Below are positions 3,712-48,600 of a stretch of DNA of 64,000 nucleotides, in pieces; position 1 is the stretch's first letter, and each line of letters starts with the position of its first letter. This stretch comes from a virus. The DNA lies in IMG/VR virus record IMGVR_UViG_3300045988_078326. One strand, written 5' to 3'. Below the pieces are notes generated by a model. It made no database searches. It saw only the letters and a program-made list of their open reading frames with translations, and was not told the DNA's origin. Made by a program: the position numbers and the translations under genes.

Positions 3712-5463
3712 TTGGAATATTCATTAATAAATCCAAGAAATTAGAATTATAGTGCTTTAGAGCAAGTATTAGTTAATAGGGGTATTTAGTATAATGATAT
3801 ATAGCATTATTTAACAGTATCAGAAAAAGATAATTTATCCCCCTTACTTCTCAATAACATTGAGGACGCTGCTAAATTAATTATTAAACATATTTTAAAG
3901 GACGATTCTTACATCTATATCTAGGTAGATAGCGACTGTGATGGATATACTTCTTCTGCGTTGTTATTAAACTACCTTCATGCACAATTTCCTTCGGCCA
4001 TTAACAAGTTTATTTATAACTTTCATTCTGGCAAGATTCATGGAATAAAACCAGAGTTAATCCCCGAAAATGTTTCACTTGTTATTGCGCCAGATTCTAG
4101 CTCCAATGATTATCAAGAGCATGAAGAACTAGCTAATCGCGGAATTGACGTACTGGTCATAGACCATCACTTAGCAGATAAAGTATCCGAATATGCCTGC
4201 GTTGTTAATAATCAGCTTTGCGATTATCCAACAAAATCATTATCTGGTGTAGGAGTAGTTTATAAGCTATGCCAATATATGGATAGTATTTGCGGAACCG
4301 CATATGCGGACGATTATCTTGATATTGTAGCAACTGGTCTTGTTGGAGACATGATGGATATTCGAGATTTTGAAACTCATTATCTTATCCAGTAGGGGCT
4401 ATAGAGATCGAGTCTCCGCAATCCATTTATTAAAGGTATGGCTGATAAAAATGTTTATTAGTTAGGGAAAGGAGATTTAACTCCTATAGGAGTAGCGTTC
4501 TATATTGTTCCTCTTGTTAATGCTATTACTCGTGTGGGTACTCAAGACGAAAAGTAGATTCTATTTGAAAGTATGCTTGAATGGAAAGCATATGATCTTA
4601 TTCCTTCTACTAAACGAGGATGTAAGGGACAAGAAGAAACAAGATTAGAACAAGCACTAAGAGTTTGTACTAATGTTAAAAATCGTTAGACTAGAACTAG
4701 AGATGCAGAAGTTGAATGTATAGAGAATATAATCTAGGAAAATAATCTTCTGGAGCATAAAGTTCTGGCAATTAAATTAGATAATATGTCTATTGATAGA
4801 GGTATTACTGGGTTAATTGCTAACGAGTTAATGAGTAAATATAAACGACCTGTAGTTCTTCTTTCTAAAACAGAGCATGAAGGATTGGAGGCTTGGGAAG
4901 GGTCTGCTAGAGGATATGAAAAATCTAAAATGAAAGACTTTAGATAGTTTGTTAAAGAATCAAACTTAGTATTCCTCGCCGAAGGACACGCCAATGCTTT
5001 CGGTTTTGGTATTTATGATAAAGATTTTGAAAGTTTTATTTCATGGTCAGATAAATAGCTAAAAGATATAGAATTTTCTCCAAGTTACAAGGTAGATTTT
5101 ATTTACTCTATGTCAGATATTAATTCTAAGGATATTCTCGATTTAGGCGATGCAAAATATCTTTGGGGTCAAAATATCGACGAGCCGCTTATCGCGGTGG
5201 AAAATGTTGCAGTAACAAATGATATGATTGGTCTCATGTCACGAGACAAGAATCCTACTTTGAAGATTCAATTACCAAATGGAGTTACTTGCATCAAGTT
5301 TAAATCAAGCGAAGAGGAGCTAGATAATTTATCTAGCGAATTAGGTTGCGTGAGTATAAATTTGATTGGTAAACCAGAAGTAAATAGATACTTCGGTAGT
5401 GTGACACCACAAATTATTATTACAGATTATGAAATTATAAGTAGATAGAAGTATTACTTTTAA
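3712..5463 (+). CDS. recJ: RecJ-like DHH-family single-strand DNA exonuclease
   Basis: Hand translation with TAG read as sense joins ORFs 3961..4395 and 5110..5448. DHH motif I is VDSDCDGYTSSALL, motif III is VLVIDHH, and a DHHA1-like EGHANAFGF follows. Several in-frame TAGs are present (for example 3745, 3787, 3802, 3922, 5056, 5446). Start at TTG 3712 or nearby; end at TAA 5461-5463. Confidence 0.65.
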
Positions 5464-5502
5464 TGATTGCGCAACCTCTTACTAAAGGAGGAAACAATCA
5501 CA

Positions 5503-6270
5503 ATGAGACGTTTTATGAGTATTATACTAAGTTTAATCATTTTATTATCTATAATATGTAGTTGCAATAGTCCTTTCATTTCTATTGCATCAGCATATTC
5601 AGTACCGTATAACAGCAGTATTAGTTATACCTATAATGATTTAGATACATTGGTTGAGCTTATTGCGGAACAAATCTCTAATATGAACGCCGCACATCAA
5701 ATGGCCGATGCTGCTAGACAGTTAGGCTATTCTGAAAATCATGATGTTATCGAACTAGCCGTGAATGAATATGATAAGGCGAATGAGCTAAGACAATCTT
5801 ATCAAGATGTATATGATAACCTCATGGAACATTGGCATCAAAAGGAAGAAGAGTACCCAGTGGCAACATATATTTGGAGCTATTTCAAAGACTTAGGTTA
5901 TAACGATCAAGTTTGTGCGGGCATACTTGGTAATATAATGACTGAAGTTGGTGGTAATACATTGAACATTCAATATGAATTAAGCAATTCTTCATATTAT
6001 GGAATGTGTCAGTGGAATAAAGCGTATTCTGAGGTTTGGGGAGCCTCATTAGAAGAGCAATGCAATTATTTGAAAAATACTATTGAATATGAATTTAATA
6101 CATTCGGTCACGCCTATAAGAAAGGGTTTGACTATAATGATTTTCTAAATATGACAAGTATAACTGATACCGCTTTGGCATTTGCGAAATGCTATGAGAG
6201 GTGTGGATCTGGAAGTTATACGACAAGACAAAATAATGCAATTATCGCGTATAATTATTTTGTAAGCTAA
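5503..6270 (+). CDS. secreted or membrane-anchored lysozyme-like protein (phage tail-lysozyme family-like)
   Basis: ATG 5503 has a strong RBS (AAGGAGG). N-terminal signal/TM is MRRFMSIILSLIILLSIICSC. A conserved block AGILGNIMTEVGG...YYGMCQWNKAYSEVWGAS resembles phage tail-lysozyme or glucosaminidase-like domains. Confidence 0.45.
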   Translation: MRRFMSIILSLIILLSIICSCNSPFISIASAYSVPYNSSISYTYNDLDTLVELIAEQISNMNAAHQMADAARQLGYSENHDVIELAVNEYDKANELRQSYQDVYDNLMEHWHQKEEEYPVATYIWSYFKDLGYNDQVCAGILGNIMTEVGGNTLNIQYELSNSSYYGMCQWNKAYSEVWGASLEEQCNYLKNTIEYEFNTFGHAYKKGFDYNDFLNMTSITDTALAFAKCYERCGSGSYTTRQNNAIIAYNYFVS

Positions 6271-6279
6271 AATAAATAT

Positions 6280-6315
6280 CTGCGGGCTGGCCGGAACCTA
6301 GACGACCGCCCGCAG
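6280..6315 (+). terminator. GC-rich stem-loop; putative terminator after the lysozyme-like gene
   Basis: ctgcgggc...gcccgcag is a perfect 8-bp GC stem with a 20-nt loop, conspicuous in an AT-rich genome. A T-run lies about 20 nt downstream, which is not classical spacing. Confidence 0.35.
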
Positions 6316-6380
6316 GAAACTAAAATGGCTTTAACTATTTTTTGAGGTAAAATCGTCGGTTACGCGGTTTTATAAAATTT

Positions 6381-6575
6381 TTGGACAAATCCTACGAATT
6401 ATACTATAATAATATTCAGATAAGATATAAGAAAATAGGAGGAATTATTATTATGGTAAATAAATGTGTTGTATGTGGGAAGGATTTTGAGGCCATAAAA
6501 TCCACAAAGAAATATTGCAGTAATGATTGCATGAATGCTGCCAGAAGAGCTAGATATGGAGAACGACAAATTTAG
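6381..6575 (+). CDS. small zinc-ribbon protein
   Basis: 64 aa with CVVCGK...CSNDC. Confidence 0.4.
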   Translation: MDKSYELYYNNIQIRYKKIGGIIIMVNKCVVCGKDFEAIKSTKKYCSNDCMNAARRARYGERQI

Positions 6576-6980
6576 ATGGTTACTAATTCAATGGATTTAC
6601 ATAATAAAAGCTGTCTTATTTGTGGGAAAGATTTTACGCCTAAAACCCCCGCCGCGAATAATCGTCAATGCTGTTATAATTGTATGCCAGATGGAGTTCA
6701 ACTAACTAGAGGAATGTTTCTAGCTAAAATAAAAGAGCACCTAGGTGGAAGATGTATAAAATGTGGATACGATAAATGTTTAAAAGCTCTAGAATTTCAT
6801 CATTTAGATCCCTCTAAAAAAGATTTTACTATTAGTAACGATCATTTTAAGTTAAAAGAAGCGGTTGAAGAAGTAAAAAAATGTATTTTAATATGTTCTA
6901 ATTGTCATAAAGAATTACATGATAATTTATGGACTATAGATGAACTAAATCTTGAAGAAAAGGAGGAAGTAGAACCATGA
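6576..6980 (+). CDS. HNH homing-type endonuclease
   Basis: Two Cys pairs and the HNH core (CIKCGYDKCLKALEFHHLDP...CSNCHKELH). Its stop overlaps the next start as ATGA. Confidence 0.7.
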   Translation: MVTNSMDLHNKSCLICGKDFTPKTPAANNRQCCYNCMPDGVQLTRGMFLAKIKEHLGGRCIKCGYDKCLKALEFHHLDPSKKDFTISNDHFKLKEAVEEVKKCILICSNCHKELHDNLWTIDELNLEEKEEVEP

Positions 6981-8157
6981 CTCTAACTAACATGCAAGAG
7001 CAAGGTTTGAAAATCGCTGTAGCCCGATACAAAGCTCATGAGCCCTATACTTGTATCGCTGGCTACGCCTGACCGGAACAGGGAAAAGCACCTTAATTAA
7101 ATTTATTGTGGCTGCTCTTAATATGTATGAGGAAGAGGTTGCTTATATCGCTTTTACTGGAAAGGCTTCAGAAGTACTGCGAGAAAAAGGGTGTCCTAAT
7201 GCTCAAACCGCGCATAGATTACTTTATTATAGTAAACAAATGCCTAATGGTAAGTTTGTTTATAAACCTCGGCCACATATTGAATATAGTCTTATTGTTG
7301 TAGACGAGGTATCTATGTTACCTATTGATATGTGGGAATTGTTACTTTCTCATGGAGTATATGTTATTGCTTGCGGCGACCCGTTCCAGTTGCCACCTGT
7401 AGACAAGACTAAAGAAAACCATATACTTGACAACCCGCATATTTTCTTAGATGAGGTAATGAGACAAGCTAAAGAAAGCGATATTATTGTTACAAGTATG
7501 AATATCAGAGAAGGCAAATCAATCGTTCCAATGCGAGGAAATGATACTCAAATATTTAGAAAACAAGAACTTGTAGCTGGGATGTACGGTTGGGCCGATG
7601 AAATTCTTGTTGCGACAAATAAGAATAGATTTGATATAAATTAGTTTATGAGACTTGATGCCGGAAGAAGCTCAGAACCAGAAAGAGACGATAAAGTTAT
7701 TTGTCTAAGAAATACGTGGGATATTTGTTCTGTTAAAGATGAAAACCCTCTTATCAACGGCACAATAGGTTACTTAAAAGATTTCTCTCTAGTTACTATG
7801 CAGTACAAAACTCTTACTGAATCTTTTACGGCTCAAATACTTCTTTCTAGTATTGAGACAACCTCTGGAGACACCTATCTTGATGTTCCTATTGATTATA
7901 ATTCGCTTTTAACAGGTAAGAAAACTTTTACTCCACAGCAAGAATATTATCTTAATAAAAGAAAGGATAATCCACCTCTCCCAATAGAGTTTAACTATGG
8001 GTACGCAATCACTACTCATAGAGCCTAGGGTTCACAATGGGACAATGTATTGGTTATAGAGGAAAATTTTCCTTTCGATAAAGAAGAGCATGCTAGATGG
8101 CTTTATACCGCCTGCACTAGAGCAGCAAAGAAACTAACATTGATTTTAAAGAAATAA
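6977..8157 (+). CDS. dda: Dda/RecD-like SF1B DNA helicase, frame-disrupted inside the Walker A motif
   Basis: N-terminus MTLTNMQEQGLKIAVARYKAHEPYTCIAGYA resembles the T4 Dda start and runs into TGA at 7070-7072. Frame -1 continues as LTGTGKSTLIKFIVAAL... through ORF 7051..7644. In-frame TAGs at 7642-7644 and 8026-8028 continue to TAA at 8155-8157. Motif V reads THRA(TAG)GSQ, matching HKSQGS, and motif VI reads YTACTRAAKKL. Confidence 0.7.
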
Positions 8158-8199
8158 TATAGTATAATATATTATATAGTAATATAAGAGAGGTATAAT

Positions 8200-11100
8200 A
8201 TGAGTTACTTTAACAATCATTCGCATACGGAGTTTAGTAACTTGCGTTTGCTTGACTGTATAAATAAACCAGAAGAGCTGATTGATAAAGCTATTGAAGT
8301 TGGATTAACGGGAATAGCTATCACGGACCACGAATCTCTCTCCGCGCATATGAGAGTAAATAAATATGCGAAAAAAATCAAAGAAACTAATCCCAGTTTT
8401 GTTATAGCTCTTGGTAATGAAATCTATCTTACAGATACTAGAGATTTAGGACAAAGATACTATCACTTTATCTTAATTGCTAAAGACGAAATTGGTTATA
8501 GGGGACTAAAGGAGTTATCTTCTATCGCCTGGATGAATGGTTATTATGATAGAAGAATGGAAAGAGTTCCTTTGCTTAAATCAGAATTAAAAGATGTAAT
8601 GCAGAGATTTAAAGGGCATATTATTGGCACTACTGCTTGTATTGGCGGTGAATTAGGTCAATCCATTTTAAATCTAAATAATTGTGAAGAAATAAAAGAT
8701 GAAGTAAACGCAAAGCGTTATCATCAACAGATTGTAGATTTTATTACTTTCTGTATAGATGTATTTGGTCAAGATGATTTTTATATTGAGTGCGCACCAG
8801 CGTCATATCCTGACCAGATTATTGCAAATAAAAGAATGTTAAAAATTGCAGAAGCGTTCTCTGTTAATATGTGTATCGGCACAGATGCCCACTATCTAAC
8901 AAAAGAAGATAGATATGTCCATAAAGCATATTTAAATTCTAAGGGCGGAGAAAGAGAAGTCGATAGCTTCTATGAATTTACTCGTCTTATGGACGAAACT
9001 GAAACTAGAGAATTACTTCGTTTGAGCTATGAAGATAATATTATTGATTGGATTTTTAATTGCTCAAACGAGATTAAAGATAAAATAGAATTTTACTCTC
9101 TGGAAAAGCATCAGTCTATTCCAGAAGTAGAAGTAACTGATTACCCTCCTACTGCATGGTGGGGAACTAACAATGATTATGCAGATGAAATGTCTAAGTA
9201 TCCAATCCTAAAATCACTTTTCACTTCCGATAATATTCAAGAGCGTTATTGGATAAATGAATGCTGGAAAGCGCTAGAAGCAAAAGGTATTGATTGGATT
9301 GATAGACCAGAATATCCAGAAAGACTTGAAGAAGAAGCAAGAGTAAAGAGAGTGATTGGAGAGAAATTACAAACTTGTATGTTCGCTTATCCAAATACAT
9401 TAAAACACTATGTTGATTTGTTTTGGGATTGCGGAAGTACGGTAGGTGCGGGTCGAGGTTCGGCTTGTGCAGCTCTTAATCATTATCTTCTTGGAATTAC
9501 TCAGCTGGATCCAATCGAATGGGATCTTCCTTTCTGGAGATATATCAATGACAAAAGAACAGAACTTGGAGATATTGATTTGGACTTGGCTCCATCTAAG
9601 ATTCAAAAAATCTTTGCTGAAATCAGAAAAGAACGAGGAGAATTAGGGCTAGTCCAAGTATGTACCTTCGGAACTGAGGGAACTAAATCTGCCATATTGA
9701 CAGCCTGTAGAGGTTATAGATCTGACGATTATCCAGAAGGTATTGATGTTGATATGGCTCAATATATGAGTTCCCTAATTCCGCAGGAAAGAGGCTTCTT
9801 GTGGCCCATTGAGGACGTCGTTAATGGAAACCCAGAAAAGGGACGTAAAGCAGTTACTACATTTGTAAATACTGTAAATCAATATCCCGGTCTTCTAGAT
9901 ATTATTACTAGAATTCAAGGGCTTGTAAATAAACGTTCTAGTCATGCATCCGGCGTTATTTTGTTTGATGAAAATATTTTCGACAGTGCCGCAGTTATGA
10001 GAACACCAAAGGGTGCATTAATTACTCAATGGGATTTGCATGACCAAGAGGCTGCTGGTTCTGTTAAGTATGACTTTCTCTTAACAGCAGTTCAAGATAT
10101 TATTATCCAAGCTGTTGAATTACTACAAGAAGATGGAGTTATCGAAAAAGATTTAACTTTAAGAGAAGTATATAATAAATATCTTCATCCATCTGTCTTG
10201 CCTCAAGATGATAAAAAAATGTGGGATGCTTTAGCTAATGGTGATGTTCTTGGATGTTTCCAATTTGACTCAAGCGTTGGTGCACAAGCCGCGAAGAAGA
10301 TTAAACCTCAAAATCCGCATGAGATGGCTGACGCGAATGGATTGATGCGCCTAATGACTTCCGAAAAAGGTGCTGAAACTCCAATGGAGAAGTATGTTCG
10401 ATTTAAGAATAATATTTCTCTTTGGTATCAAGAAATGGACAGAGAAGGATTAACAAAAGAAGAACAAAGGATTCTCGAACCGCATTTCTTACGTTCTTAT
10501 GGTGTTCCTCCTAGCCAAGAACAAATGATGACCATGTTACAAGACGAGAATATCTGCGGATTTACTCTTGAAGAAGCGAATGCTGCAAGAAAAATTGTTG
10601 GTAAAAAGCAAATGAATAAAATCCCAGAACTTAAAGAAAAGGTCTTAAACTCTGCGAAATCTCCCGCGTTAGGACATTATGTCTGGACTTATGGCATCGG
10701 CCCGCAAATGGGTTATTCGTTCAGTATTATCCATGCTCTTGCTTATAGTTTTGTTGGTATGCAAACTCTGTATCTTGCTACTCATTTTAATCCGGTATAT
10801 TGGAATACGGCGTATCTGATTGTAAATAGTGGTGCTATTGATGAAGAAGAAGGAGAACAATCAGATTATACAAAGATTGCAAAAGCAATAGGAGAAATTC
10901 GTAATGCAGGAATTAAGGTTTCCCTTGTGGATATTAATAATTCTGACTTTGGATTTAAGCCAGATGTAAAAAATAACTAGATTCTTTTCGGATTAAAGGG
11001 TTTGTCAAATGTTAATAATGAACTGATAAAAACTATTGTAGATAATCGACCCTATGTATCTCTTGTTGATTTCTATAACAGAGTTCATCCTAATAAACAA

Positions 11101-12102
11101 GCAATGATTTCTTTAATTAAAGGTGGAGGATTCGACCAGTTTAGTTCACGTATGGAGGCTATGATTCAATATATATGGATTACCTGCGATAAGAAAAAGA
11201 GAATTACTTTACAAAACCTTCCTGGGTTAATGAGATATGATCTTATCCCCTATGAAGAAAAGTTTGTGATGCCGAAAAGAGTGTATGAATTTAATAGGTA
11301 TCTAAAAGCAGAGTGTAAAGATCCTTACAATGTAGCAAAATATAAACTCGACGAAAGAGCAATCACCTTTCTCGTTGAAATTGATTGCGAGGATCTATTG
11401 GAAACAGATAATCTAGCATGGTATATTGACATAAAAGCCTGGGATAAAATTTATCAAAGTTACATGGACGTATTTAGAAATTGGATCTCTGAAAATAAAG
11501 AAACGATTTTAGATAATTTAAACACCACCATCTTTATGGAAGATTGGAAAAAGTATGCTTCAGGGAACATATCTTCTTGGGAAATGGAATCTCTATGTTT
11601 TTATTATCACGACCATGAGCTAGCGAATATTAACAATAGCAAATATGGATTTGTAGACTTCTTTAGCCTTCCAGAAGAACCTCAAGTAGATAAAGTATTT
11701 AAAAAAGGTGCTTCTTTAATTCCTATTTATAAACTGCATAAAATCTGCGGGACGTGCATTGCAAAAAATAAGGTGAAGAGTACTGTATATCTTCTTACAA
11801 CAACTGGAGTAGTAGCAGTTAAATTCAGACAAGAATACTTTGCTTTGTTTGATAAACAAACCTTCCAAAGAAACGCAGATGGAACAAAGAGAGTTGTAGA
11901 GAAGTCTTGGTTTAATAGAGGTAATATGATTGTTGTGCAAGGGATTAGACGAGGCGATGAATTTGTAACAAAGAAATATGCAAGTTCTGGAGGCCATCAA
12001 CTTTATCACATTGATGAAATTATCAATGGAACAGATCTAATCTTGAGAAGCGAAAGAAAACAAGGAGAAGATGAAGATGAAGATAGTAGCATTAATGGGT
12101 GA
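8200..12102 (+). CDS. dnaE: DNA polymerase III alpha subunit (DnaE-type), about 1300 aa
   Basis: ORF 8200..10980 has a PHP domain at the N-terminus, plus a polymerase core. It ends at TAG 10978-10980, and the same frame continues as ORF 11002..12102, which encodes the HhH/OB C-terminal region (ILFGLKGLSNVNNELIKTIVDNRPYVSLVDFYNRV...LIKGGGFDQF). It is therefore one gene with a sense TAG. Confidence 0.85.
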
Positions 12103-12622
12103 AGCAGGAAGCGGTAAGGATACTATTCTCCATAGAATTATGGAGAAGTATCCTTCCTATTTCAATGAAATTATTAGTTGTACGACTCGACCTCCTAGGC
12201 AGGGAGAGAAAGAAGGAGTTAATTATCACTTCTTATCCGTTGAAGATTTTATTAGAAAAATCTTAAATGGAGATATGCTAGAGGCTACTGAATTTAATGG
12301 TTGGCACTATGGAACAGATAGTCAAAGTCTAACAATAGATAAGATAAATATAGGAGTATTTAATCCAGAAGGAGTTAGATGCTTACAGGAAGATGAAAAC
12401 ATTGAACTGTATGTATTTTATGTGCGGGCCGCGGGTAAGTAGCGTCTTTTAAGATAGCTGAATAGAGAAGAAAATCCTGATGTAGACGAAATAATTAGAA
12501 GATACAAAGCGGATACAGAAGATTTTAGTTTTCTTAATGATATAAAATATATAACTCTTTAGAACAATACCTTAGATGATATTGATATAGCTGTTGATAC
12601 TATATTTGGACAATTCTATTAA
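12071..12622 (+). CDS. gmk: guanylate kinase-like nucleoside-monophosphate kinase
   Basis: P-loop GEAGSGKDT and motif SCTTRPPRQGEKEGVNYHF. The frame continues through three TAGs (12440, 12452, 12560) to TAA 12620-12622, giving a typical guanylate-kinase C-terminus. Confidence 0.65.
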
Positions 12623-12679: not shown

Positions 12680-14869
12680 TTGTATTATATGTTACAAATA
12701 AAGAAAAGAAATGGTATAGTAGTTCCATTTGATAGAGAACGAATTATCAACGCTATCAATAAAGCCTTCATCGAAGTAGATGGAGAATTATATGAAGATG
12801 ATACTGCAAATGATATTGCAGATGAAATTAAGTATGCAGTAAAAACTTCTGACGATGTGGTTTCTGTAGAAAAAATTCAAGACATGGTGGAAGATTTTCT
12901 TATGAAGTCTGAGCGGAGAGACGTTGCTAAAGCATACATTAGATATAGATATAAAAGAGAAATTGCCAGAAAAGGGCAAGACGATTTTATGAAAGCCTTT
13001 TCTGCCAAAGTGCAGGGTTCAGATATAGAGAATCAAAATGCTAATGTTGATGAAATGTCATTCGGCGGAAGAGTTGGTGCAGCTTCTGATTTGCAAATGA
13101 AGAAGTACGCTCTTGATTATCTTGTATCTAATAAATCACGCGCAAACCATGAGAATAATGAGATTTATATTCATGACTTAAATGCTTATGCAGTAGGTAT
13201 GCATAACTGTCTTTCTATTCCTTTTGATGATTTGCTTGCAAAAGGATTCAATACAAGACAAACTGATGTACGACCAGCGGGTTCAGTAAATACAGCTTTT
13301 CAACTTGTTGCTGTAATCTTTCAGCTTCAAAGTTTACAGCAGTTTGGTGGCGTTTCTGCTACACATCTTGATTGGACTATGATTCCTTATGTAAGAAAAA
13401 GTTTCTATAAACATTATATGGATGGATTGACATATATCGAACAAGTCATTAGCATGGATGATAGATTAAATAATCAACTGTCTATTGAAGATCCTATCTA
13501 TAAGGAATTTAAAGGCGCATATTCATATGCTATCGCTATGACAGAAAAGGAAGTTCATCAAGCGGTTGAGGGAATGTATCATAATCTAAATACTCTTCAA
13601 TCTCGTTCCGGCAATCAACTTCCATTTACTTCTATTAACTATGGAACTTGTACTCTTCCAGAAGGAAGAATGGTTACTAAAGCTCTTCTGGAAGTCTCTA
13701 TTGAAGGACTTGGTAGACTTCACAAGACTTCAATTTTCCCCTGTGGAATTTTCCAATGTATGAAAGGTGTAAATAGGAAGCCTGGAGATCCAAATTACGA
13801 TTTATTTAGATTAGCATTAAAGTCTACTGCCACTAGATTATATCCTAATTATGCTAATGTAGATTGGTCTGGCAATGCCGGATATGATGTAAACGATCCA
13901 AGTACATATTTCTCTACAATGGGATGTAGAACTGCTAATGGATTCGATATTAACGGCTTAAAGCAACAGAAAGACGGTAGAGGAAATATCTGTCCTGTTA
14001 CTATTATAATGCCAACAATAGCAATGGAAGCTAATGGTGACGTAGAAACTTTTATGAAACTTTTAGATATTAAGATCGAAGAAGCGAAAGATATGCTTCT
14101 TGAAAGATTTGAATATATCTGTGCGCAACCTGCGGATTCGGCAAAATTCATGTATGAAAATGGCTTAATGGCTGGATATGATGGAATTTCTACTCGAAGT
14201 GCTTTACAACATGGCACATTGAGTCTTGGGCAGATTGGATTGGCAGAAACTTTACAAATTCTTATTGGATGTGATCATACTGAGCCAGAGGGCATGAAAT
14301 TAGCAAAAAGAATAGAGCAGTTATTTAAAGATAGATGCGCAGAGTATAAAGAAAAATATAGACTTAATTTCGGAGTATATTATACTCCAGCCGAGAATCT
14401 TTGCTATACCTCTCTTAAAAAATTCCGTGATAAGTATGGTATCATTCCTAATGTAAGCGATAGAGAGTTCTTTACTAATTCTATGCACGTACCAGTATGG
14501 CACCAACTCTCTCCATTTGATAAAATTGATATTGAAAGTCAATTAACTGGATATTCTTCTGCTGGTTGTATTACTTATGTTGAGTTAGATACTGGCATGG
14601 AAAAGAATATTGATGCTATGGAGACATTAGTAAATTATGCTATGGATAAAGATATTCCATACTTTGCAATAAATGTTCCATGTGACACCTGCCTAAATTG
14701 CGGATATACTGGCGAGTTTAATGATAAGTGCCCTCAGTGCGGTAGTAAAGAAATTCAACAGTTAAGAAGGGTAACAGGCTATCTAACTGGTAACTACAAG
14801 ACCGCCTTTAATAAAGGAAAGCAGGATGAAGTAAACAATAGAGTTAAACATGTGGGGTATATGGAATGA
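12680..14869 (+). CDS. nrdD: anaerobic ribonucleoside-triphosphate reductase NrdD (class III)
   Basis: 729 aa with an N-terminal ATP-cone. The C-terminal zinc ribbon is CDTCLNCGYTGEFNDKCPQCGS, and the glycyl-radical motif is RRVTGYL. The real start is probably ATG 12689 after an AAGGAG RBS. No TAG codons. Confidence 0.85.
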   Translation: MYYMLQIKKRNGIVVPFDRERIINAINKAFIEVDGELYEDDTANDIADEIKYAVKTSDDVVSVEKIQDMVEDFLMKSERRDVAKAYIRYRYKREIARKGQDDFMKAFSAKVQGSDIENQNANVDEMSFGGRVGAASDLQMKKYALDYLVSNKSRANHENNEIYIHDLNAYAVGMHNCLSIPFDDLLAKGFNTRQTDVRPAGSVNTAFQLVAVIFQLQSLQQFGGVSATHLDWTMIPYVRKSFYKHYMDGLTYIEQVISMDDRLNNQLSIEDPIYKEFKGAYSYAIAMTEKEVHQAVEGMYHNLNTLQSRSGNQLPFTSINYGTCTLPEGRMVTKALLEVSIEGLGRLHKTSIFPCGIFQCMKGVNRKPGDPNYDLFRLALKSTATRLYPNYANVDWSGNAGYDVNDPSTYFSTMGCRTANGFDINGLKQQKDGRGNICPVTIIMPTIAMEANGDVETFMKLLDIKIEEAKDMLLERFEYICAQPADSAKFMYENGLMAGYDGISTRSALQHGTLSLGQIGLAETLQILIGCDHTEPEGMKLAKRIEQLFKDRCAEYKEKYRLNFGVYYTPAENLCYTSLKKFRDKYGIIPNVSDREFFTNSMHVPVWHQLSPFDKIDIESQLTGYSSAGCITYVELDTGMEKNIDAMETLVNYAMDKDIPYFAINVPCDTCLNCGYTGEFNDKCPQCGSKEIQQLRRVTGYLTGNYKTAFNKGKQDEVNNRVKHVGYME

Positions 14870-15339
14870 AGTATGCAGGTATTATAAAAAATGACTTTGC
14901 TGCTGCTCCCGGAGTATCCTTGAGTTTCTTTACTCAAGGATGCCCCCATAGATGTAAAGGGTGTCATAATCAAGAGACTTGGGATTTTGATAGTGGCAGA
15001 GAATTTACTCATGAAACTCTTAATTCAATCTTAGAAGGGCTAACTGCTAATGGAATTAAGAGAACTTTATGTATAATGGGCGGCGAACCATTATGTCCAG
15101 AAAATACATTTTTAACCCATCTAGTAATACAAACCGCAAAGGAGACAATTCCTGATTTGAAGGTTTATCTATGGACTGGATACTTGTATGAAGATTTAAG
15201 AAAAACAACAGATACAGTTATTTAGAATATACTTCAATTAACTGATGTGCTAATTGATGGGCCATATATTGAAAATGAAAGAGATATTACAGAGCCTCTA
15301 AGGGGTAGTCGTAATTAGAAGATAATCTACCTAAAATGA
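14866..15339 (+). CDS. nrdG: anaerobic RNR activating enzyme NrdG (radical SAM)
   Basis: CPHRCKGCHNQ (CxxxCxxC). The frame continues through TAGs at 15223 and 15319 to TGA 15337-15339, giving the conserved C-terminus ...LIDGPYIENERDITEPLRGSRNQKIIYLK. Confidence 0.8.
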
Positions 15340-15368
15340 TTTTCGTAAAAAGTATTTTTGGAGGAATA

Positions 15369-15878
15369 ATGATAGCAATAGCAAGCTATATCTATTTGTC
15401 TGTTGGTGGTATAGTTGGAGCTATTATGTTTTCCATTGGTTTATTAACCATACTAAATATGTAGTTTAAGTTGTTTACTGGTTCAGTTGGTTATATCAAG
15501 AGCAAAAATGATATAAAAGACAATCTTATTATTTTATCAGGAAATATCATTGGAGCGTGCGGGATTTTAGCTTTTCCGCACGCAGCAGCTCTATCTTTGG
15601 TCTCTGCTAAGATTGCAGTTCCGCTATATCTAGTTTTCCTAAAAGGAATTGTTTGTGGTATATTTATATATTCGGCAGTATCTTCATTTAAGAGAAATAA
15701 AGATTATATGGTGCCAGTTTGTGTAACAGGCTTTATATTATTCGGTGGAGAACATTGCATTGCCGATCTTTGTTATGCCTTGGCCGCTGGTGTGCTTTCT
15801 ATTGATATAATATTATTTCTAATAGTAGTTACATTGGGTAATTCTATAGGAGCAATAATTGTTGACAGAATACAATAA
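15369..15878 (+). CDS. short formate/nitrite transporter (FNT)-like membrane protein
   Basis: ATG 15369, with TAG at 15462. FNT-like blocks are LNMQFKLFTGS (compare LFTGN), NLIILSGNIIGA and FGGEHCIADLCYA (compare EHsIANmf). About 5 TM helices. It appears N-terminally truncated relative to FocA-type channels. Confidence 0.45.
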
Positions 15879-15914
15879 TTATGATATTATATTAAAAGAA
15901 AAGGAGGGCTAGAT

Positions 15915-17880: not shown

Positions 17881-18312
17881 ATGTTTACATTTATAGCAGA
17901 ACATATAGTAGAAATTCTGTTTGGTCTAATTTCCGCAGGTGCTTTGGCTTTTTGTAGATATTTATATAAACAATTAATAGCTTACAAAAAGATGTTACAA
18001 GAGAAAGAGAATGATGATATAGCTGAATTGATTGACGAAAAGTTGAAACCTGTAGTAGAAGATATTGAAGAACTTCGAAGATATATACGGAGGATTGAAA
18101 ACAAAGAAAATCAAGACTTGACCTTAATTATAGCTTCGTATAGATTTCGACTTGTTCAACTGTGTAAAATATATATCAAACAAGGATATATGACGCAAGA
18201 TCAATATGACCAGTTAACAGAATTTTATAAACTCTATACCTCTCTTGGCGGAAACGGTTAGGCGAAAGAATATTACGAAAAAGCGATTGAGTTAGAAATT
18301 AAATCTGTATAA
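17881..18312 (+). CDS. membrane-anchored coiled-coil protein
   Basis: 126-aa ORF with an N-terminal TM and coiled coil. It continues through TAG 18259-18261 to TAA 18310-18312 (...GGNGQAKEYYEKAIELEIKSV). Confidence 0.45.
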
Positions 18313-18313
18313 T

Positions 18314-18348
18314 AAAAAAAATGGGGAACTCTTAATTGAGTTCCCCAT
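18314..18348 (-). terminator. bidirectional rho-independent terminator at the convergence of the + early and - late units
   Basis: Perfect 11-bp inverted repeat atggggaactc / gagttccccat with a 6-nt loop. It is flanked by an A7 run, which reads as U7 on the minus strand. It overlaps the stop codon of the minus-strand gene. Confidence 0.6.
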
Positions 18349-42624: not shown

Positions 42625-42657
42625 GAATAATAGGGGAGATTTTCTCCCCTATTATTC
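42625..42657 (-). other. stable stem-loop at the 3' end of the tape-measure gene
   Basis: 15-bp perfect inverted repeat gaataataggggaga/tctcccctattattc with a 3-nt loop. It overlaps the tape-measure stop codon and has no adjacent U-run. Confidence 0.35.
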
Positions 42658-45600
42658 TTTTCTTCTATTCGCCCATTGAGTAGCATCATCCGCCAAACTA
42701 CGAATAGCATCTTGAATTTCATCAGAAGATGTCGCATTGGGGAATTCAACTCGTTCAATATTTATATTTGGCTAAACCACATTATCTGTCGGCGCAATCT
42801 AGGTATTAGTTCCCAATCTAGATGCCATAATACTAGAAATAGATAATGCATTTCCATCAAGAGTTTTCTCAATAGAGGCTATAAAACTAGGTCCAAAGGC
42901 TCTCATAGCAGAGACCGCCGCCAAGATATTTTTCGTATCCTCTTGATTTAAAACTAGCTCTTTTTCATGCAAGAAAGCTAATTTAGCATTATCAAATTCT
43001 CCGGTATATCCTCCAGTATCGAAACCACTTATCTAACTTTCTTTTAGCCATCCATAGGCAGAATTATTAGACTGCACATGGATTGGATATGGTCTACCCT
43101 TAGCTATATTTGTTATTCTAACCTTTTTACCTGGACCACGTCTACCAGCAGGATCAGTACCATAAGAGTCATGATAATAAGTTCCGCCAATATAAGTAAC
43201 TTCGTCTCCTACTTCGGGGATTCCATTACCCCCTCCGGTTCCACTGCTAGAAGACCCACTACCACTATTACCTGAGTTACCTTTATCAGTATCAGAAGAT
43301 TGACTTGAATCAGAAGAAGGTAAGTCATCTTTATCTATACTTCCTGCACTTTCTATTGTGCTACCAGCAGCTCTAGCGGCTTCTTCAAGCGCTCTTATAT
43401 ATTCTCTGACTGAATCGGCCATATCTAAATACTCTTGACTTAAATCTTGAATAGTGCTTATCTATTCTAACATCTAAGTAACGGCATTTGATCCAGCCTC
43501 AGAGCACAAATCAGTAGAAGTTGAAACATCGTCGATATAATCTTTTAAATCATCGAGACTTGTTCCAGTCTAATCGGCTACTCCAGAAACAGTAGTTTGA
43601 TAATCTTCCATCGCTCCGCTAGCTTCATCCATTGCATTAGATAAAAACTCTTCAAAGTTACCAGCATTAGCGGTCATATTGGCTAAGTCTTTCGCAAATA
43701 CATTATCAAATAGGTCAATAAGTTTTGTATTACTTCCTACTATATCTTGAATCTACTCGTTATCTGATAGTAACAAATCAATAATGCTAGAGCCAGAGTT
43801 AGCTATAATATCTTGAATTTCTTGACTTGTAATTCCAGTTAGGTCACTTACCTCGTCTCCCGCAACAATAGCCATATCAATTAAAGCTTTATTGCCGGCT
43901 TCGGTCATATCCTAAATAGCGATCTATTTTTCGTTCTCTAGGTCCTTAACCTTCTGCGTATAATAAGAATAGATTTCTTGCGCGCGGGCAGATCTTTCTT
44001 CATCAGTCAAGGTCATATCAGAATAGATTTCTTTTATCTTATCTTGACATTCTTGCCAAGTAGAAATAATCTCTCCTGTAACATCCTCTACCTACTGCTT
44101 TGCTATATTATACCACTCATTCTCCGCATCAAGCAAATTCTATTCTGCGTCAGCTATCTGGCTCGCATCTGCGGTGTATTGATAATTCCAGTTACCTTGA
44201 CTATCTCTCACTAGTCTAAGTTGATTTTTCGCATTTTGAGCATCTTCAAGTGCCATCTAAGCCTAAAGAACATTATACTTAGCTTCGAGAATTTCTAAAT
44301 CGTATTCAGATAAGGTATTGTTCTCTCTACGTATATCAATTTCCTCTTGTAGCTATTTTAACTAATCTTTCATCTTAGAGTTAGTAGCCTTATCAATATC
44401 CTGTTGTAGTTTATTATACCAAGAAGATACCTCATACGCTTCATTTACTTTATCTAAATATCTATCCTCTTGCTCGATATAATGATCAAACTTGTCTTGT
44501 AGTAGATCTAATCCTACTCCGCCAGAAACAGCCTATCCAAATTCATATACTGCTCTCTCAATAGCTTGAGTATACATCTCCTAGGCAGTTTCCATAGCGG
44601 CTTGCGCAGAACTTAACATAGCCTCTTGTGCTTCATTATATTCTTCTAGTAGAGCATCTCTATTAGCTTTTAGACCATCATATGCAGGATCCGTTTCATC
44701 TCCGCCTAATGCGTCTAGTGCAGCTTGAGCTTCCAATAGTTCTTGACGGATTCCATCGTACCATTGTTTATTTAGCTGCGCATTGGCGACCTGAGCCTTC
44801 ATAGTTTCTTCGCTTACTTCCTGAAGCTACTCAAATCCTTCCTCAGTCTTATATGTAACTCCCTAAAGAGCATATAGTTCTTTGATAAGTCCTAGAACGG
44901 ATTCATTATGGTCAAGCTAATCAGTAAAAGCTGCAAATCTTTCTGACGCGGCATCTAATGCATCTGGTAGCATTTCTTCAAGACCTTCTACCCAATCAAG
45001 CAAAGCTTCCGCAGTAGAAATCATTTTACCTTGCAAGTCAGATAACTTGCTTACAATCTCATCAATATTAGTCGCATCTGTGGCATTAGCTAATTCTTCC
45101 TGATAACTTTTAAGGGCTTCTTCATAGCTCTTGATGATTTCCTTATTCTCATTCATACTGTTTTCATCAATACGAGCGACTTCCATTCCATGAGTTAGTT
45201 CATCACCAAAAGATTCTGCTATTTGTCTTGTTAGCTCATTAACCGCATCTTTAGCATCTTTTATATCTATTGCAACTTCAAGTTTATATTCAATCTAATT
45301 TAATCTATTATCTGCAATATTTCTTTCTAGCTCTTCTTGCTCATCTTTTACATCTTGAATCTTGTCAAGAGTTTCTTCATATTGAGCTAAAGCGTCCTAA
45401 CGAGCCTAGAATAATTCATCAGCAACTTCTTTTTGTAATTGCCAACTATCATATTCTGCCTATCTAGCCTCCTATTCATCTTTAGTAAGACTGCTAAACA
45501 TTAATAAGAAAGCGTTGTAATCGGTTAAGAAGTTATTATTATAATCATCAACAATAGATTGAAGAACGTCTTGATAACCTTCAATTTCTCCATTTTCATC

Positions 45601-48600
45601 AAAAGTAAGAGAATTGTTGAATAATCCTTGAAGGTCTGATCTATCTTTCTCAAGATAGGTCTCAGCCTCATCAAGCATCTTATTATAATTAGCTTGCTGT
45701 TTTTCTAACTCTTGAAGCTCTTTCTAATAAGCCTATAATTTCTTCGCTCCATATGCTCTATCTATATTATTACCAATATCATCTAATAAATTATTCTAAT
45801 TCTCAATCTCACGAGTTATTTCATGGTATCTATCTTCTATATCTTCAAGAGTTTTTTCATCTTCGGCATCATATTTTGTACCTTCGTTATCTCCGCCAGA
45901 ATCTTTATTTCTAATATTGTCTGTTGCTATTCTATTCGGATCTAATGCTCCATCAGGATCAAATGCAAATGGCTCCTAACCATAATCAAAAATACCATTC
46001 TATCCAGATCCCGTACCCTAAGAAGATAAATATGAACCAGCTTCTTTTAGAGCATTAGTAAAATTACCAATAGCATCTCCGCCCTCGCCGGAAATTTTTA
46101 ATCCTAGAGTGGGAAGCTCAAAAGGAAGATCCGCTTTGCCAGCTAGCCAATCATCTATCTATAATTTTCCCCATGATTTTACATATGGAGTAAAACCTAA
46201 ATCATATTCAAAATTAGAAATTAAATCTCCTAGTGCTGTTAGAACAGCCCCAGCCGCCTATGAAGTTGAGCTAATTGTATTAGCACTCTCGGACATAGTA
46301 GAATTAATAACGGCTCCAGCGATACTAGCATCAGTGGACATTGCTTGCATTAAAGCATCGGCGCTTGTATCTAGTCCATTTGCTAGCGTTATTCCCTAAT
46401 CAAGAACACCCTAGAGAATCCTTTTATAAGATTCGTTATTAGTCTATTCTAGTCCTACGAGCTATTGTCCAATACTTGATACCATTGCCTAAAATTCTGT
46501 CGCAGTAGTATCGAAATTATTATCAATGGTAAAATCTATCGCTCCAAAGCTATCAGCATAGTTTAATAAGTAATCGTAATTATCTACTAAACTATTTACA
46601 ATTCCCATCATGTCTTGGGCATCGCTCACTTGTTTTTCCCAAGTATTTAAATTAGATATATCAGACATGGTTCTGGCATATTCTTCCTCAGAAATTGTAG
46701 TTTGATCTACTCCATCTTTGAGTTCCCAAACTCCGTCTGTATTTTTTGTAATATTCTAATTTAATTTAGACTAAGCCGTAATTAATGCTTTCGTGGCAGC
46801 GATTGTTCCCTCATAGTAATCATCCATATTGATGGTTCCAGATTTAAACTTTTTATTTAAATCTATCAGTCCATCCCCTATAGACCCGGTTGCAGCGACC
46901 AAAGTAGCTTCATATAAATCAGTTTCTTCTATATTATCGTCAATTTCTTCGTTTAATCTATGAAAGCCTGCATTTATATTACTTAATCTTTTATTAATCG
47001 TATCAAAATATTCTTGGGCAGATATTGCCCCCTCCTGATACGCTTTCGCATTATCACTAAGGGCCTATGTTCTCTCTTTAAACAATTCTACATCAGTTTC
47101 ACTTGTAAACGTATAATCATTTATTGCATTTGAATCACTGGCTCGCGATACTAATTCATCCCACATATTAATATAATTCTAGAGATAATCAGTATTTACC
47201 CCATATTTTTCTTTCATAGATTCTATTGTAGCATCAAGAATTTGCTCTTCTTGTCGTTCAGAATCTAAAAATGTCTAAAGAGACTAATTTGTTAGTTTAT
47301 ACGCATCTCCAACTTTAACAATATACTAAGCATATCTTTCATCTGCATTAATGAGTTCTTGAACTTGATCCATGGTTAGATAGCCTTCTTGATCCTTATA
47401 TGACTATAAGGCAGATTCAAGAGCACTCTAACTATTATTTAATTCTTCCAATATAGATTTTAAGTCGTCTATTCCCTTTACATTTATATTTATTTCATTA
47501 ATTTTATAATTATCTAAAAATTCCTATAATTCTTCAACCGTATCAAAATTATCTATATTGACATCCATAAGGATTTCCCAATCCTCATTTGATAGAGAAT
47601 CAAAATCAAAATCACTAAATTTACTTTCTACTTTTTCCTTTGCTTCATCTACTCTGCTATCTACAAAAGTTAAAAACTCATCTACGCTGACTCCAGCTAA
47701 CATTAATTCATTTTTAATGGATTCTGTTATCAAACCAGAGGCTGCACTAATATCACTACTAGCCAAAGTGCTATAAAGCTAAGTAGAAATCTATTTAACT
47801 GATTGGTTATCTAAAATTGGTTTTAATATAACCTCTTCATATTCACTTTGACTGCCATAAAGATTTTTACGAATAAGAGATAACTGCTCCTGCATTGAAG
47901 CTATCATTTCTGGATTATACTCAATAACCCCGTCAGTAACAGATTTAATATATGCAGCATAATCATCTTCTGCTTGCTATATAGCTTCAGAATTGTCAGT
48001 TACCCACTGTGCCGTAATCTATTCATTTTGAGTAACCCAATCTTGATACTCTACTAAGTAATCACGATAGGCATCAGAATTTTTATCAAGGCCCTAAGTA
48101 ATACTATTAAACCAAGTGTCTGCATCTACGTACTAATCTTTATAAGTATATCTATTCTATTCAAGTACAGATTGAGCATTTGGATCATTTAAATCCATGC
48201 TCTATTCTAACTCTTTAAACCAGTCCTAGTCTCCATTGTATTCATTCCAACTTCTCCACTAGGTTAAATCTGGTCCTCCTGCCAAACTCTTAGTAGATTT
48301 ATCATAATTCTCTTCGATAGTTTTTGCCTAGGCTTTTTGCGCTTCTTCTGTTAACTTCTCTTGTAACTCAACCTATCTCTACAAAGAAGATTCTGCCTAT
48401 TTAAGTTTTTCTAATTCTTCTTGTTCGACTATACTTAAAGAATCCTAATTATTTAATTCTTCTATTCTATCTTTCGTTGTCTATAATTCAGAATTTAAAG
48501 ATTCTAATGCAGATTTCTAATCCTCATAAGCCTAGGTAGCATTAGATATTTTTTCTCTAGCCTCTTCTTCCGTAACAATAATGAGAGAAATAACATTAAC

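Follow-up and report, generated by a model that had tools for sequence, protein, structure and literature searches.

Class III ribonucleotide reductase (RNR) oxidizes one formate to CO2 for each dNTP made. [quoted passage not shown] FocA (E. coli, Salmonella and Vibrio; PDB 3KCU, 3KLY and 3Q7K) is a 285-residue protein with an aquaporin-like, six-transmembrane (TM) hourglass fold in which the omega and S loops break TM2 and TM5, and its gene lies in an operon with those for a glycyl-radical enzyme and a radical-SAM activase (focA-pflB-pflA). The related channels HSC (FNT3; Clostridioides difficile, PDB 3TDO) and NirC (Salmonella, PDB 4FC4) have 250–270 residues and are genetically linked to sulfite and nitrite reductases. 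A typical FNT has about 25–55 cytoplasmic N-terminal residues before TM1 (PMC5525234) and is about 250–300 residues long. The one viral FNT in the literature is linked to nitrite: a focA that adjoins the nitrite reductase gene nirA in an oxygen-minimum-zone (OMZ) cyanophage (PMC8115048).

We analysed a 64,000-nucleotide stretch of phage DNA (the window) in which the genes for a class III RNR (nrdD) and its activase (nrdG) are followed by one for a 180-residue FNT-family protein, here called mini-FNT. As in the focA operon, the channel gene is accompanied by genes for a glycyl-radical enzyme and a radical-SAM activase; PflB, however, produces formate whereas NrdD consumes it, and the net flux expected through mini-FNT is therefore inward. 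The arrangement also recalls the OMZ cyanophage scaffold (PMC8115048), where a phage-borne FNT-family auxiliary metabolic gene (AMG) likewise sits beside an enzyme that would use the transported anion. That scaffold, however, belongs to a marine T4-like phage and pairs nirA with a full-length cyanobacterial-type nitrite transporter, whereas the window phage comes from the gut and pairs a minimal FNT with a class III RNR. An earlier note on this DNA, made from the letters alone, did not recognize a phage mini-FNT beside nrdDG as a described combination, and our literature search agrees with it: we found no paper describing a phage FNT–nrdDG pairing.

Genetic code and operon structure of the phage

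The window is phage genome sequence, with PHROG matches for portal, DnaB and RuvC. Its source is a TAG-to-Gln-recoded, siphovirus-like gut phage of about 146 kb, and the host is probably a low-GC Bacillota anaerobe. Across the whole window, read-through of TAG gives ORFs of up to 2841 residues with 99 in-frame TAGs; of the 72 listed read-through ORFs of at least 90 residues, not one ends in TAG. Three traits of genetic code 15 are present: TAG stands in frame in conserved genes, is not used as a terminator, and interchanges with CAA at nrdG codons 24 (CAA in the window phage, TAG in two relatives) and 151 (TAG in the window phage and relative L066, CAA in L002–L007 and L065). At nrdG codon 120, TAG is found in all eight of the eight close relatives. 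TAG is a sense codon (probably Gln) across the genome, and standard-code gene models were rejected because the stop-codon analysis shows TAG read as sense. In the 64-kb window, which covers part of the roughly 146-kb genome, a search found no tRNA gene and so no suppressor tRNA(CUA).

Other gut phages with TAG-to-Gln recoding (Phass-1, OQ749652; crAss-like and Lak phages) resemble the window phage in their large siphovirus type and in the concentration of in-frame TAGs in late and structural genes. Phass-1 is 35% identical to the window phage in its portal protein and 40% in NrdD. The FNT gene of the window is absent from Phass-1 and from all other GenBank phage records searched, and at the DNA level 12 kb of the locus matched no GenBank phage.

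Standard-code gene calling splits nrdG, the channel gene and the genes for guanylate kinase (gmk) and DNA polymerase III alpha, which shows that, where TAG recoding goes unrecognized, even early genes of such phages are truncated and misdescribed. gmk (12071..12622, + strand; 183 residues) contains three in-frame TAGs read as Gln, matches Pfam Guanylate_kin over residues 3–177 (2.2e-24) and is cut at 123 residues under the standard code. It is the upstream neighbour of nrdD within one nucleotide-metabolism block, is syntenic in loci L001 and L111, and has a start that overlaps the end of the gene for DNA polymerase III alpha. nrdG (14866..15339, + strand) encodes 157 residues with in-frame TAGs at 15223–15225 and 15316–15318 read as Gln, and under the standard code stops at 15225 after 119 residues. 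The read-through protein scores 137.4 bits against TIGR02491 (cut-off 126.1) over residues 2–156, a match that needs both TAGs to be Gln. It also matches Fer4_12 (6.4e-37), carries the CxxxCxxC cluster motif as C26-x3-C30-x2-C33, and evolves with a dN/dS of 0.06–0.12. The three genes of the earlier note are real, but its gene boundaries were wrong: reading TAG as Gln gives 157 residues for NrdG and 180 for the membrane protein, not 119 and 135.

nrdD (12689..14869, + strand; 726 residues from the ATG at 12689, with an alternative TTG start at 12680) has no in-frame TAG. Its product contains the Pfam domains NRDD (5.8e-151, 504 bits), ATP-cone (2.2e-21) and Gly_radical (9.8e-11), and its best solved relative is Prevotella copri NrdD (PcNrdD, 8p23; 7e-122), which requires formate by experiment (PMC11226230). 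The signature of formate-type enzymes is two catalytic cysteines, no third cysteine on β-strand 6 and no active-site glutamate (PMC11226230, PMC4493059). Aligned to PcNrdD, the phage protein has C174, M411-G-C413-R-T415, N433 and G697, with asparagine at the third-cysteine position and no active-site glutamate. These residues point to a formate-dependent enzyme (NrdD1 of Wei et al.) like the NrdD proteins of E. coli, T4 and P. copri, in keeping with the earlier statement that the class III RNR uses formate. Of the 15 other NrdDs that are encoded beside an FNT and can be aligned across the thiyl loop, 13 keep M-G-C and the asparagine. The FNT-adjacent NrdD of L055 has N-C-C-R in this loop and falls outside a clear reductant class, and the nrdD genes of L043 and L056 carry an insert, with K at the cysteine position in local alignment. 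Formate-type residues beside an FNT are a weak test of a link to formate, as most phage NrdDs may be of the formate type anyway.

nrdD and nrdG overlap by ATGA (14866–14869, the nrdG ATG lying on the nrdD stop), as do nrdG and the mini-FNT gene (15336–15339, the FNT ATG lying on the nrdG stop), and the three genes form a translationally coupled operon. Together with the Pfam and TIGR matches, these overlaps bear out the earlier description of nrdD-nrdG followed by an FNT-family membrane protein ending at 15878. No terminator-like site was found in a scan from nrdD to 16955. A promoter-like site (15862..15890, + strand; TTGACA-17-TATTAT with an upstream TG, 11 of 12 matches) lies over the last FNT codons; this is a weak, consensus-scan prediction from a region in which promoter-like sites total fewer than the shuffle expectation and the promoter and terminator scan gave nothing beyond it. 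The site may start transcription of the genes from 15915 on, in which case the FNT gene would be the last of the nrdD-nrdG-FNT unit.

Fold and pore of mini-FNT

The mini-FNT gene (15336..15878, + strand; 180 residues) has one in-frame TAG, at 15462–15464 (codon 43), read as Gln. The protein scores 56.9 bits against PF01226 (gathering score 34.6; E 2.6e-15), with residues 2–175 aligned to profile positions 21–232 of 240, an alignment that requires this TAG to be Gln. PF01226 is carried by 66 of 66 homologues of 169–190 residues, and the LFTGS, GNIIGA and EHCIAD blocks from which the family had originally been suspected are found in the protein; the similarity is not compositional.

Under the standard code the membrane ORF starts at TTG 15471 and has 135 residues, and the earlier note took the channel to lack the first one or two helices of FocA. 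All six TM helices are present in a model of a close homologue and its structural matches (below); the helices seemed to be missing because the TAG-to-Gln recoding went unrecognized. It is very improbable that the gene is a truncated FNT fragment without TM1–TM2a (135 residues from TTG 15471) or a stop-interrupted pseudogene. The standard code does place an in-frame TAG at 15462–15464 and gives a longest ORF of 135 residues, but TAG is sense throughout the genome, and the match of the full-length protein to the FNT profile begins at profile position 21. Moreover, the 42 codons 5′ of the codon-43 TAG encode TM1 and TM2a, are conserved in homologues and are under purifying selection, and codon 43 itself is AGA or GGA in relatives L065 and L066 and Gln in proteins P0001–P0003. 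A split, two-piece FNT (42 + 135 residues) is ruled out by the sense codon at position 43 in relatives. Over all 180 codons dN/dS is 0.056–0.090, a range like that of nrdG, indicating purifying selection.

The fold was modelled on P0007, a protein 77% identical to that of the window, as an AF2 monomer with 38 homologues (pLDDT 96.2, pTM 0.91). The model has helices at residues 2–22, 24–41, 46–52, 56–78, 83–92, 96–118, 124–135, 140–149 and 155–177, and all 50 listed Foldseek matches in the PDB are FNT channels (TMq up to 0.89). HSC and NirC are the top matches (TMq 0.82–0.89, 22–25% identity), with HSC marginally the best (0.88–0.89), and FocA gives 0.80–0.86. As modelled, mini-FNT is a complete six-TM FNT protomer with broken TM2 and TM5, and so has the Pfam family and hourglass fold of FocA. 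It is, however, 105 residues shorter than E. coli FocA, because termini and loops have been trimmed: TM1 starts at residue 2 with no cytoplasmic N-terminal segment, the N-terminal domain of about 30 residues and the C-terminal tail are absent, and all loops are shorter. Its mechanism may differ from that of FocA because the N-terminal domain is absent. The protein falls far below the cut-offs of the FocA equivalog TIGR04060 (18.1 bits against 290.1) and of the canonical fnt subfamily model TIGR00790 (26 bits against 232.3), and the name FocA is therefore unsuitable.

FNT channels have a central constriction formed by F75/F202/H209/A212 and a cytoplasmic slit formed by L79/L89/T91/V175 (3KCU numbering; PMC5525234). 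Alignment with E. coli FocA gives an identical constriction in mini-FNT (F32/F133/H140/A143) and the slit residues L36/L46/T48, while V175 corresponds to I111, an allowed variant, in profile alignments to 3KLY, LCIA and HSC. The conserved polar residues are kept at K156 (the vestibule lysine; K92 by profile alignments), E208 (E139) and N262 (N169), and deviate at N172 (G108) and N213 (D144). FocA N213D is functional, and at N172 glycine is the sole variant that occurs naturally (PMC9380403); these two changes are tolerated deviations, yet deviations nonetheless. In TM4 (the K156, N172 and V175 columns), which the MAFFT alignment to FocA mis-gapped, three concordant HMMER alignments were used.

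The state of the pore bears on whether mini-FNT could be a membrane-acting protein (a leak channel or depolarizer, a superinfection-exclusion factor or a lysis-timing factor) whose FNT ancestry is incidental. With the FocA N-terminal domain absent the channel could be ungated, no PHROG family matches the protein, and several viral lineages carry a mini-FNT away from nrdD among unrelated small genes. Against this, the residues lining the selective pore are, but for the two tolerated changes, kept under strong purifying selection, which a mere leak would not need, and the gene is translationally coupled to nrdG and lies in the replication/nucleotide block, not in a lysis or structural block. We regard such a role as quite unlikely.

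The FFHA constriction is common to formate, nitrite (NirC-beta/gamma) and hydrosulfide (HSC) channels as well as FdhC, so that the pore does not reveal the substrate. Mini-FNT might thus be a working channel whose substrate is some other weak acid or small anion (nitrite, hydrosulfide, bicarbonate, lactate or acetate) and that serves detoxification, pH or redox balance, its adjacency to nrdDG reflecting only a shared early-expression module. Besides the shared constriction, this reading is favoured by the place of HSC at the head of the Foldseek list, by profile matches of the family to NirC and the bicarbonate channel LCIA as well as to FocA and HSC, by the JGI labels of close homologues ('NirC' or 'nitrite transporter NirC') and by the link to nitrite of the sole published viral FNT (PMC8115048). 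We nevertheless think it rather unlikely, on the evidence of gene neighbourhoods.

Recurrence of the FNT–nrdDG link

The 50%-identity FNT cluster to which the window belongs has 43 further loci, and 40 of them keep the synteny. More widely, nrdD or nrdG lies within 6 kb in nine of the 18 viral FNT clusters in IMG/VR (50% identity; binomial P ~6e-8 against a generous 5% chance rate), in the orders D-G-F, D-F-G and F-D-G and as F with G-D encoded on the other strand. The co-occurrence that the earlier note had proposed to look for thus recurs across many divergent phages, and the shuffling of gene order suggests that the linkage itself is selected, contrary to a mere shared-expression module. 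HSC and NirC genes are linked to sulfite and nitrite reductases, whereas none of the 110 mini-FNT loci examined showed a gene for either reductase as a neighbour; the recurring neighbours are instead formate-consuming NrdDG in phages and formate-producing PflBA in cells. A crude ORF-coverage test on 12-kb loci, suggestive only, points to a mixture of codes among the FNT–nrd phages, some TAG-recoded, some TGA-recoded and some standard. That the link is found again in many lineages of uncultivated gut phages suggests that it has real selective value.

Cellular mini-FNTs (Clostridia, Bacilli and Methanomassiliicoccales MAGs; 176–220 residues) have the compact architecture and motifs of the window protein at 30–40% identity, but mostly other neighbours (Na:Ala symporter, pflBA and purine genes). 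They adjoin pflB-pflA in two Clostridia MAGs, one of them in the E. coli order focA-pflB-pflA; another adjoins formyltransferase and IMP cyclohydrolase genes, and one bacterial contig has FNT-nrdD-nrdG-recX. The pfl and formyltransferase neighbours tie the subfamily to formate independently of the phage loci. Conserved-neighbour clustering of the bacterial loci yielded no more than Na:Ala symporter, GroES and CarA-like genes, in Flemingiibacterium, which are uninformative on substrate. In one half of the viral FNT lineages and almost all cellular ones, nrdD is absent within 6 kb, and at cluster level viral lineages do not differ significantly from cellular ones (Fisher P = 0.09). NrdD occurs without any such channel in over 3000 GenBank phage records, so the channel is dispensable. 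The sole tblastn match of the FNT in GenBank phages, MT839063 (30%), is probably not a phage fragment; by eye, the ORFs flanking its FNT-like match begin like bacterial dnaX, ybaB, recR and smpB.

Formate supply as the proposed role

On balance we favour the view that mini-FNT is a channel by which the phage takes up formate for its class III RNR, although only the genomic context points to formate as the substrate. Mini-FNT would assemble as a pentamer in the host membrane, like other FNTs, and admit formate or formic acid into the infected cell, where NrdD, activated by NrdG, would oxidize it to CO2, one molecule per dNTP. The phage would thereby be independent of host pyruvate formate-lyase for reductant while replicating its large genome. 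More speculatively, because nrdG and the FNT gene contain TAGs that must be suppressed and nrdD does not, active RNR and channel would appear only after the phage has switched codes. The inward direction is an assumption, because FNT channels are bidirectional. The earlier note had allowed for either supply or export of formate; only supply is plausible, because NrdD consumes formate.

If about 100 genomes of 146 kb are made, they need about 3e7 formates, equivalent to about 50 mM in a 1-fL cell (arithmetic with an assumed burst size). Reductant supply could limit phage replication in low-formate anaerobes, because each deoxynucleotide takes one formate. A phage-borne formate inlet would, if real, be a new kind of AMG, one that ties formate cross-feeding in the gut to the synthesis of viral DNA.

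A broader version of the uptake proposal, which we put forward tentatively and think doubtful as a whole, is that a minimal FNT devoid of the N-terminal domain has been captured repeatedly by phages of anaerobic habitats, which linked it to class III RNR as a dedicated and perhaps ungated inlet for formate or formic acid. In the recoded lineage of the window phage, the TAGs of nrdG and of the channel gene, which nrdD lacks, would hold back activation of RNR and insertion of the channel until the switch of codes. Were this version true, the supply of reductant, and not the enzyme alone, would be a phage-encoded step of dNTP synthesis.

The mini-FNT subfamily (176–220 residues) has no characterized member. 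It comprises 279 clusters (50% identity) at an E of 1e-30 or better; the 150 top-scoring hits are mostly 176–220 residues long. If the broader version is right, these proteins would be the smallest functional FNTs and a minimal scaffold for studies of FNT mechanism, and as stripped-down channels without the FocA N-terminal domain they lend themselves to testing channel gating and the choice of direction. BFVD contains one structural match to mini-FNT, and the compact architecture is also seen in UniProt entry A0A8S5NWF3 (Siphoviridae sp. ctTnV63, 191 residues), which is automatically named 'Formate/nitrite transporter'. Within the subfamily, the clade of the window protein has Asp after EH-x-IA, where other mini-FNTs usually have Asn.

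TAG recoding and gene models

Matches to phage portal, DnaB and RuvC proteins (PHROGs) confirm at the sequence level that the window belongs to a phage genome. Its portal shares 35% identity with the portal of Phass-1, a gut siphovirus with published TAG recoding, and about 30% with those of Enterococcus EF1-like phages. The NrdD protein shares 67% identity with its counterpart in Thomasclavelia ramosa phages, which makes a Bacillota host likely.

Under the standard code, an ORF scan of the nrdD-nrdG-FNT region yields four plus-strand ORFs, of 729 aa (12680–14869), 119 aa (14866–15225), 42 aa (15336–15464, hydrophobic) and 135 aa (15471–15878), the last two sharing a frame. Translation through stops extends the NrdG-like sequence beyond the TAG at 15223 (TDTVI*NILQLTDVLIDGPYIENERDITEPLRGSRN*KIIYLK) and the membrane protein across the TAG at 15462 (LTILNM*FKLFTGS). 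The resulting plus-strand genes are nrdD (12689–14869; NRDD match at 5.8e-151 plus ATP-cone and Gly_radical domains), nrdG (14866–15339, 157 aa; 137 bits with TIGR02491, whose cut-off is 126) and, with its TAG read through, a formate/nitrite transporter (FNT) gene (15336–15878, 180 aa; PF01226). The genes of the nrdD-nrdG-FNT locus described in the earlier note are therefore real, but read-through shows that the boundaries assigned to them were wrong. The nrdD/nrdG and nrdG/FNT junctions are both ATGA overlaps, suggesting that the three genes are translationally coupled, and a terminator scan found no terminator-like site between them.

With TAG read as sense, ORFs of 100 aa or more hold 78 kb of sequence rather than 36 kb, and ORFs of 2905, 1324 and 1305 codons appear; TGA read-through has little effect. 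The 72 listed read-through ORFs of at least 90 aa terminate in TAA (54) or TGA (18) and never in TAG. One tape-measure-sized ORF of 2841 aa (42652–51177, minus strand) contains 99 in-frame TAGs, and tail-region ORFs of 1313, 929 and 636 aa contain 17–32 each. Within the conserved RGSxNQ motif at the NrdG C terminus, the Gln codon (codon 151) is TAG in the window and in the related locus L066 and CAA in seven relatives, whereas codon 24 is CAA in the window and TAG in two relatives. We assign TAG to Gln across the whole window on this sequence evidence. Standard-code gene calling breaks up most of the late region. TAG recoding of this kind is already known, and its weight here lies in the altered gene models.

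In most genes for tail and structural proteins, 40–79% of Gln codons are TAG, and TAG use within the structural block is bimodal, with several TAG-free genes beside neighbours in this range. The TAG-free genes (53550–54944, 58089–58625, 58687–59739 and 59759–60448, minus strand) include those for a capsid-like phrog_4088 protein and a phrog_2729 protein named 'virion structural protein' in PHROGs, and are probably highly expressed virion genes. Among early-block genes, TAG is absent from nrdD, dUTPase and primase and present in gmk, nrdG, FNT, RuvC (7) and the ORF at 4279–5463 (9); TAG makes up 0/31 Gln codons in nrdD, 2/6 in nrdG, 1/2 in FNT, 3/7 in gmk and 1/48 in the DNA polymerase gene. 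ARAGORN detects no tRNA gene, and hence no suppressor tRNA(CUA), in the 64-kb window. Relatives of the phage are about 137–149 kb in size, so any suppressor would be encoded in the rest of the roughly 146-kb genome or supplied by the host.

DNA polymerase III alpha is one 1300-aa gene (8200–12102, plus strand) with a single TAG (10978–10980), at which the standard code cuts it into 926 and 366 aa. The gene is uninterrupted in the related contig L001 (1298 aa) and split by a LAGLIDADG endonuclease gene in L111. A GC-rich hairpin with an 11-bp stem (18321–18348), which looks like a bidirectional terminator, lies exactly at the junction of the plus-strand early block, whose end is at 18312, and a minus-strand block starting at 18332.

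The membrane protein as a compact FNT

The 180-aa read-through protein scores 56.9 bits against the PF01226 profile (threshold 34.6, profile positions 21–232), upholding its earlier description as FNT-like, and falls far under the cut-offs of the FocA equivalog and canonical fnt subfamily models. Of 66 homologues, the full-length ones measuring 166–202 aa, 64 have a precomputed PF01226 match. Residues encoded 5' of the TAG are conserved in homologues; at position 43 the closest homologues have Gln, and further ones carry G, D, N or E. Comparison with four relatives gives dN/dS values of 0.056–0.090.

A structural model of P0007, a homologue 77% identical to the window protein and modelled in its place (pLDDT 96.2, pTM 0.91), has nine helices (TM1, TM2a, TM2b, TM3, a loop helix, TM4, TM5a, TM5b and TM6). 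In a Foldseek search of this model against the PDB, all 50 listed matches are FNT channels, headed by HSC (TMq 0.89) and followed by FocA, NirC and PfFNT. The earlier note had considered the first one or two FocA helices to be missing, but neither this model nor alignment to E. coli FocA leaves a helix absent; the 105 extra residues of FocA are located in its N-terminal domain, its C terminus and every loop. The window protein is a compact but complete FNT.

Pore-residue definitions were taken from PMC5525234, and the E. coli FocA reference sequence was verified against 19 published residue numbers. FocA F75, F202, H209 and A212 align with window F32, F133, H140 and A143; L79, L89 and T91 with L36, L46 and T48; and E208 and N262 with E139 and N169. 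Three concordant profile alignments place K156, N172 and V175 at K92, G108 and I111. FocA N213 corresponds to D144; the N213D variant of FocA still functions, and position 172 has no natural variant other than Gly (PMC9380403).

A whole-library profile search returned 279 clusters (50% identity) at E 1e-30 or better, and most of the 150 best matches are 176–220 aa long. Judged by sequence, these mini-FNTs are a distinct FNT subfamily, and we found no paper characterising it. A 2017 survey of the FNT family describes N-terminal segments of 25–55 residues (PMC5525234). Database names for the homologues are automatic only (JGI 'NirC'; UniProt A0A8S5NWF3 'Formate/nitrite transporter', from a gut siphovirus).

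Linkage of mini-FNT to nrdDG

The co-occurrence of nrdD, nrdG and FNT (D, G and F below) recurs across IMG/VR. Among the 63 loci examined there, every member of the window clade with sufficient flank has the order D-G-F, and the contigs L001 (145 kb) and L111 (137 kb) share the window order of PolIII-alpha, gmk, nrdD, nrdG, FNT and, further on, dUTPase. More distant viral FNTs (33–49% identity, contigs of 9–237 kb) also adjoin nrdD or nrdG, in differing orders: D-F-G (L043, L046 and L064), F-D-G (L045 and L055), F-D (L056), D-G-F (L042, L054, L057 and L058) and F with G-D on the opposite strand (L048). Nine of 18 viral lineages (50%-identity clusters) are linked to nrdD/nrdG (binomial P ~6e-8 against a 5% chance rate), and the rest have no nrdD within 6 kb.

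Among the 42 cellular MAG loci left once L065–L067 had been set aside as wrongly binned phage contigs, L078 alone has nrdDG next to the mini-FNT (mini-FNT, nrdD, nrdG at 5980–9990; 23% GC; recX and RNase HII (rnhB) downstream). This contig looks chromosomal, suggesting that the linkage exists in at least one cellular genome, and viral and cellular clusters do not differ significantly in linkage (Fisher P = 0.09). None of about 3000 GenBank phage records with NrdD carries this FNT. In agreement with the earlier note, which did not recognise the combination as described, full-text literature searches turned up no description of phages in which an FNT is linked to NrdD; the sole published viral FNT, from a cyanophage, is a nitrite-type focA adjoining nirA (PMC8115048).

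Only one GenBank 'phage' record has an FNT homologue (MT839063, 'Bacteriophage sp.', 4.6 kb), and it is probably a piece of bacterial DNA, because the ORFs beside its FNT, read by eye, begin like dnaX, ybaB, recR and smpB. Several distant FNT contigs (L043, L046, L052 and others; 9–237 kb) gain much ORF coverage when TGA rather than TAG is read through, in a crude test of 12-kb pieces, so the FNT-nrdDG pairing may span phages with different genetic codes. Some relatives carry a mobile ORF of ~211 aa with no Pfam match and a C-terminal PPYHPNC(C/S)C motif, placed between nrdG and FNT or between nrdD and nrdG (L001 7382–8017; L009 ~4880–5520; also L017, L021, L025–L031 and L036–L038). The window lacks it.

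Formate enzymes and a possible role for the channel

The closest solved relative of the window NrdD is P. copri NrdD (7e-122), which requires formate by experiment (PMC11226230) and has Asn in place of the third Cys, in beta-strand 6 (PMC11226230; PMC4493059). Alignment to this enzyme gives a window active site of C174, M411-G-C413-R-T, N433 and G697. Fifteen other FNT-adjacent NrdDs can be aligned over the thiyl loop, and 13 of them keep the M-G-C and Asn residues; the exceptions, L043 and L056, have K at the Cys position in a local alignment and contain an insert in nrdD. A divergent FNT-adjacent NrdD in L055 (6798–9210, 645 aa) lacks the ATP-cone and has N-C-C-R for the M-G-C-R thiyl loop. 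The NrdG motif of this locus is also unusual (CCTFKCGNEFC).

In two Clostridia MAGs the mini-FNT adjoins pyruvate formate-lyase and its activase (PFL-like match, 738 bits), as F-pflB-pflA, the order of the E. coli focA operon, in L084 (1566–6067) and as pflB-pflA-F in L104 (2806–6564). The L104 PFL ORF seems to stop within the glycyl-radical domain. Together, the pfl and nrdDG neighbours tie the mini-FNT subfamily to formate-making and formate-consuming glycyl-radical enzymes. Another mini-FNT adjoins formyltransferase and IMP cyclohydrolase.

We propose that the phage puts a compact, putative FNT pentamer into the membrane, which would admit formate or formic acid for NrdD; genomic context points to this substrate and direction of flux. 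The suggestion in the earlier note that an nrdDG-linked FNT channel serves formate supply or export gains partial support, on the side of supply. The FocA N-terminal domain is absent, which suggests that the phage channel is not gated by PflB. The kept His140 and Thr48 fit proton-coupled uptake; FocA H209N is reported as efflux-only (PMC8914244). The aligned pore residues do not discriminate between a formate, a nitrite and an HS- channel.

In L020, L039, L065, L066, L043 and L056, nrdD spans 3.1–3.5 kb, about 1 kb above the length in the window, which suggests an intron, intein or homing-endonuclease insert. The tblastn alignment is interrupted at the thiyl-loop Cys in L043 and L056, and the annotation of the Thomasclavelia phage nrdD places an HNH endonuclease inside it.
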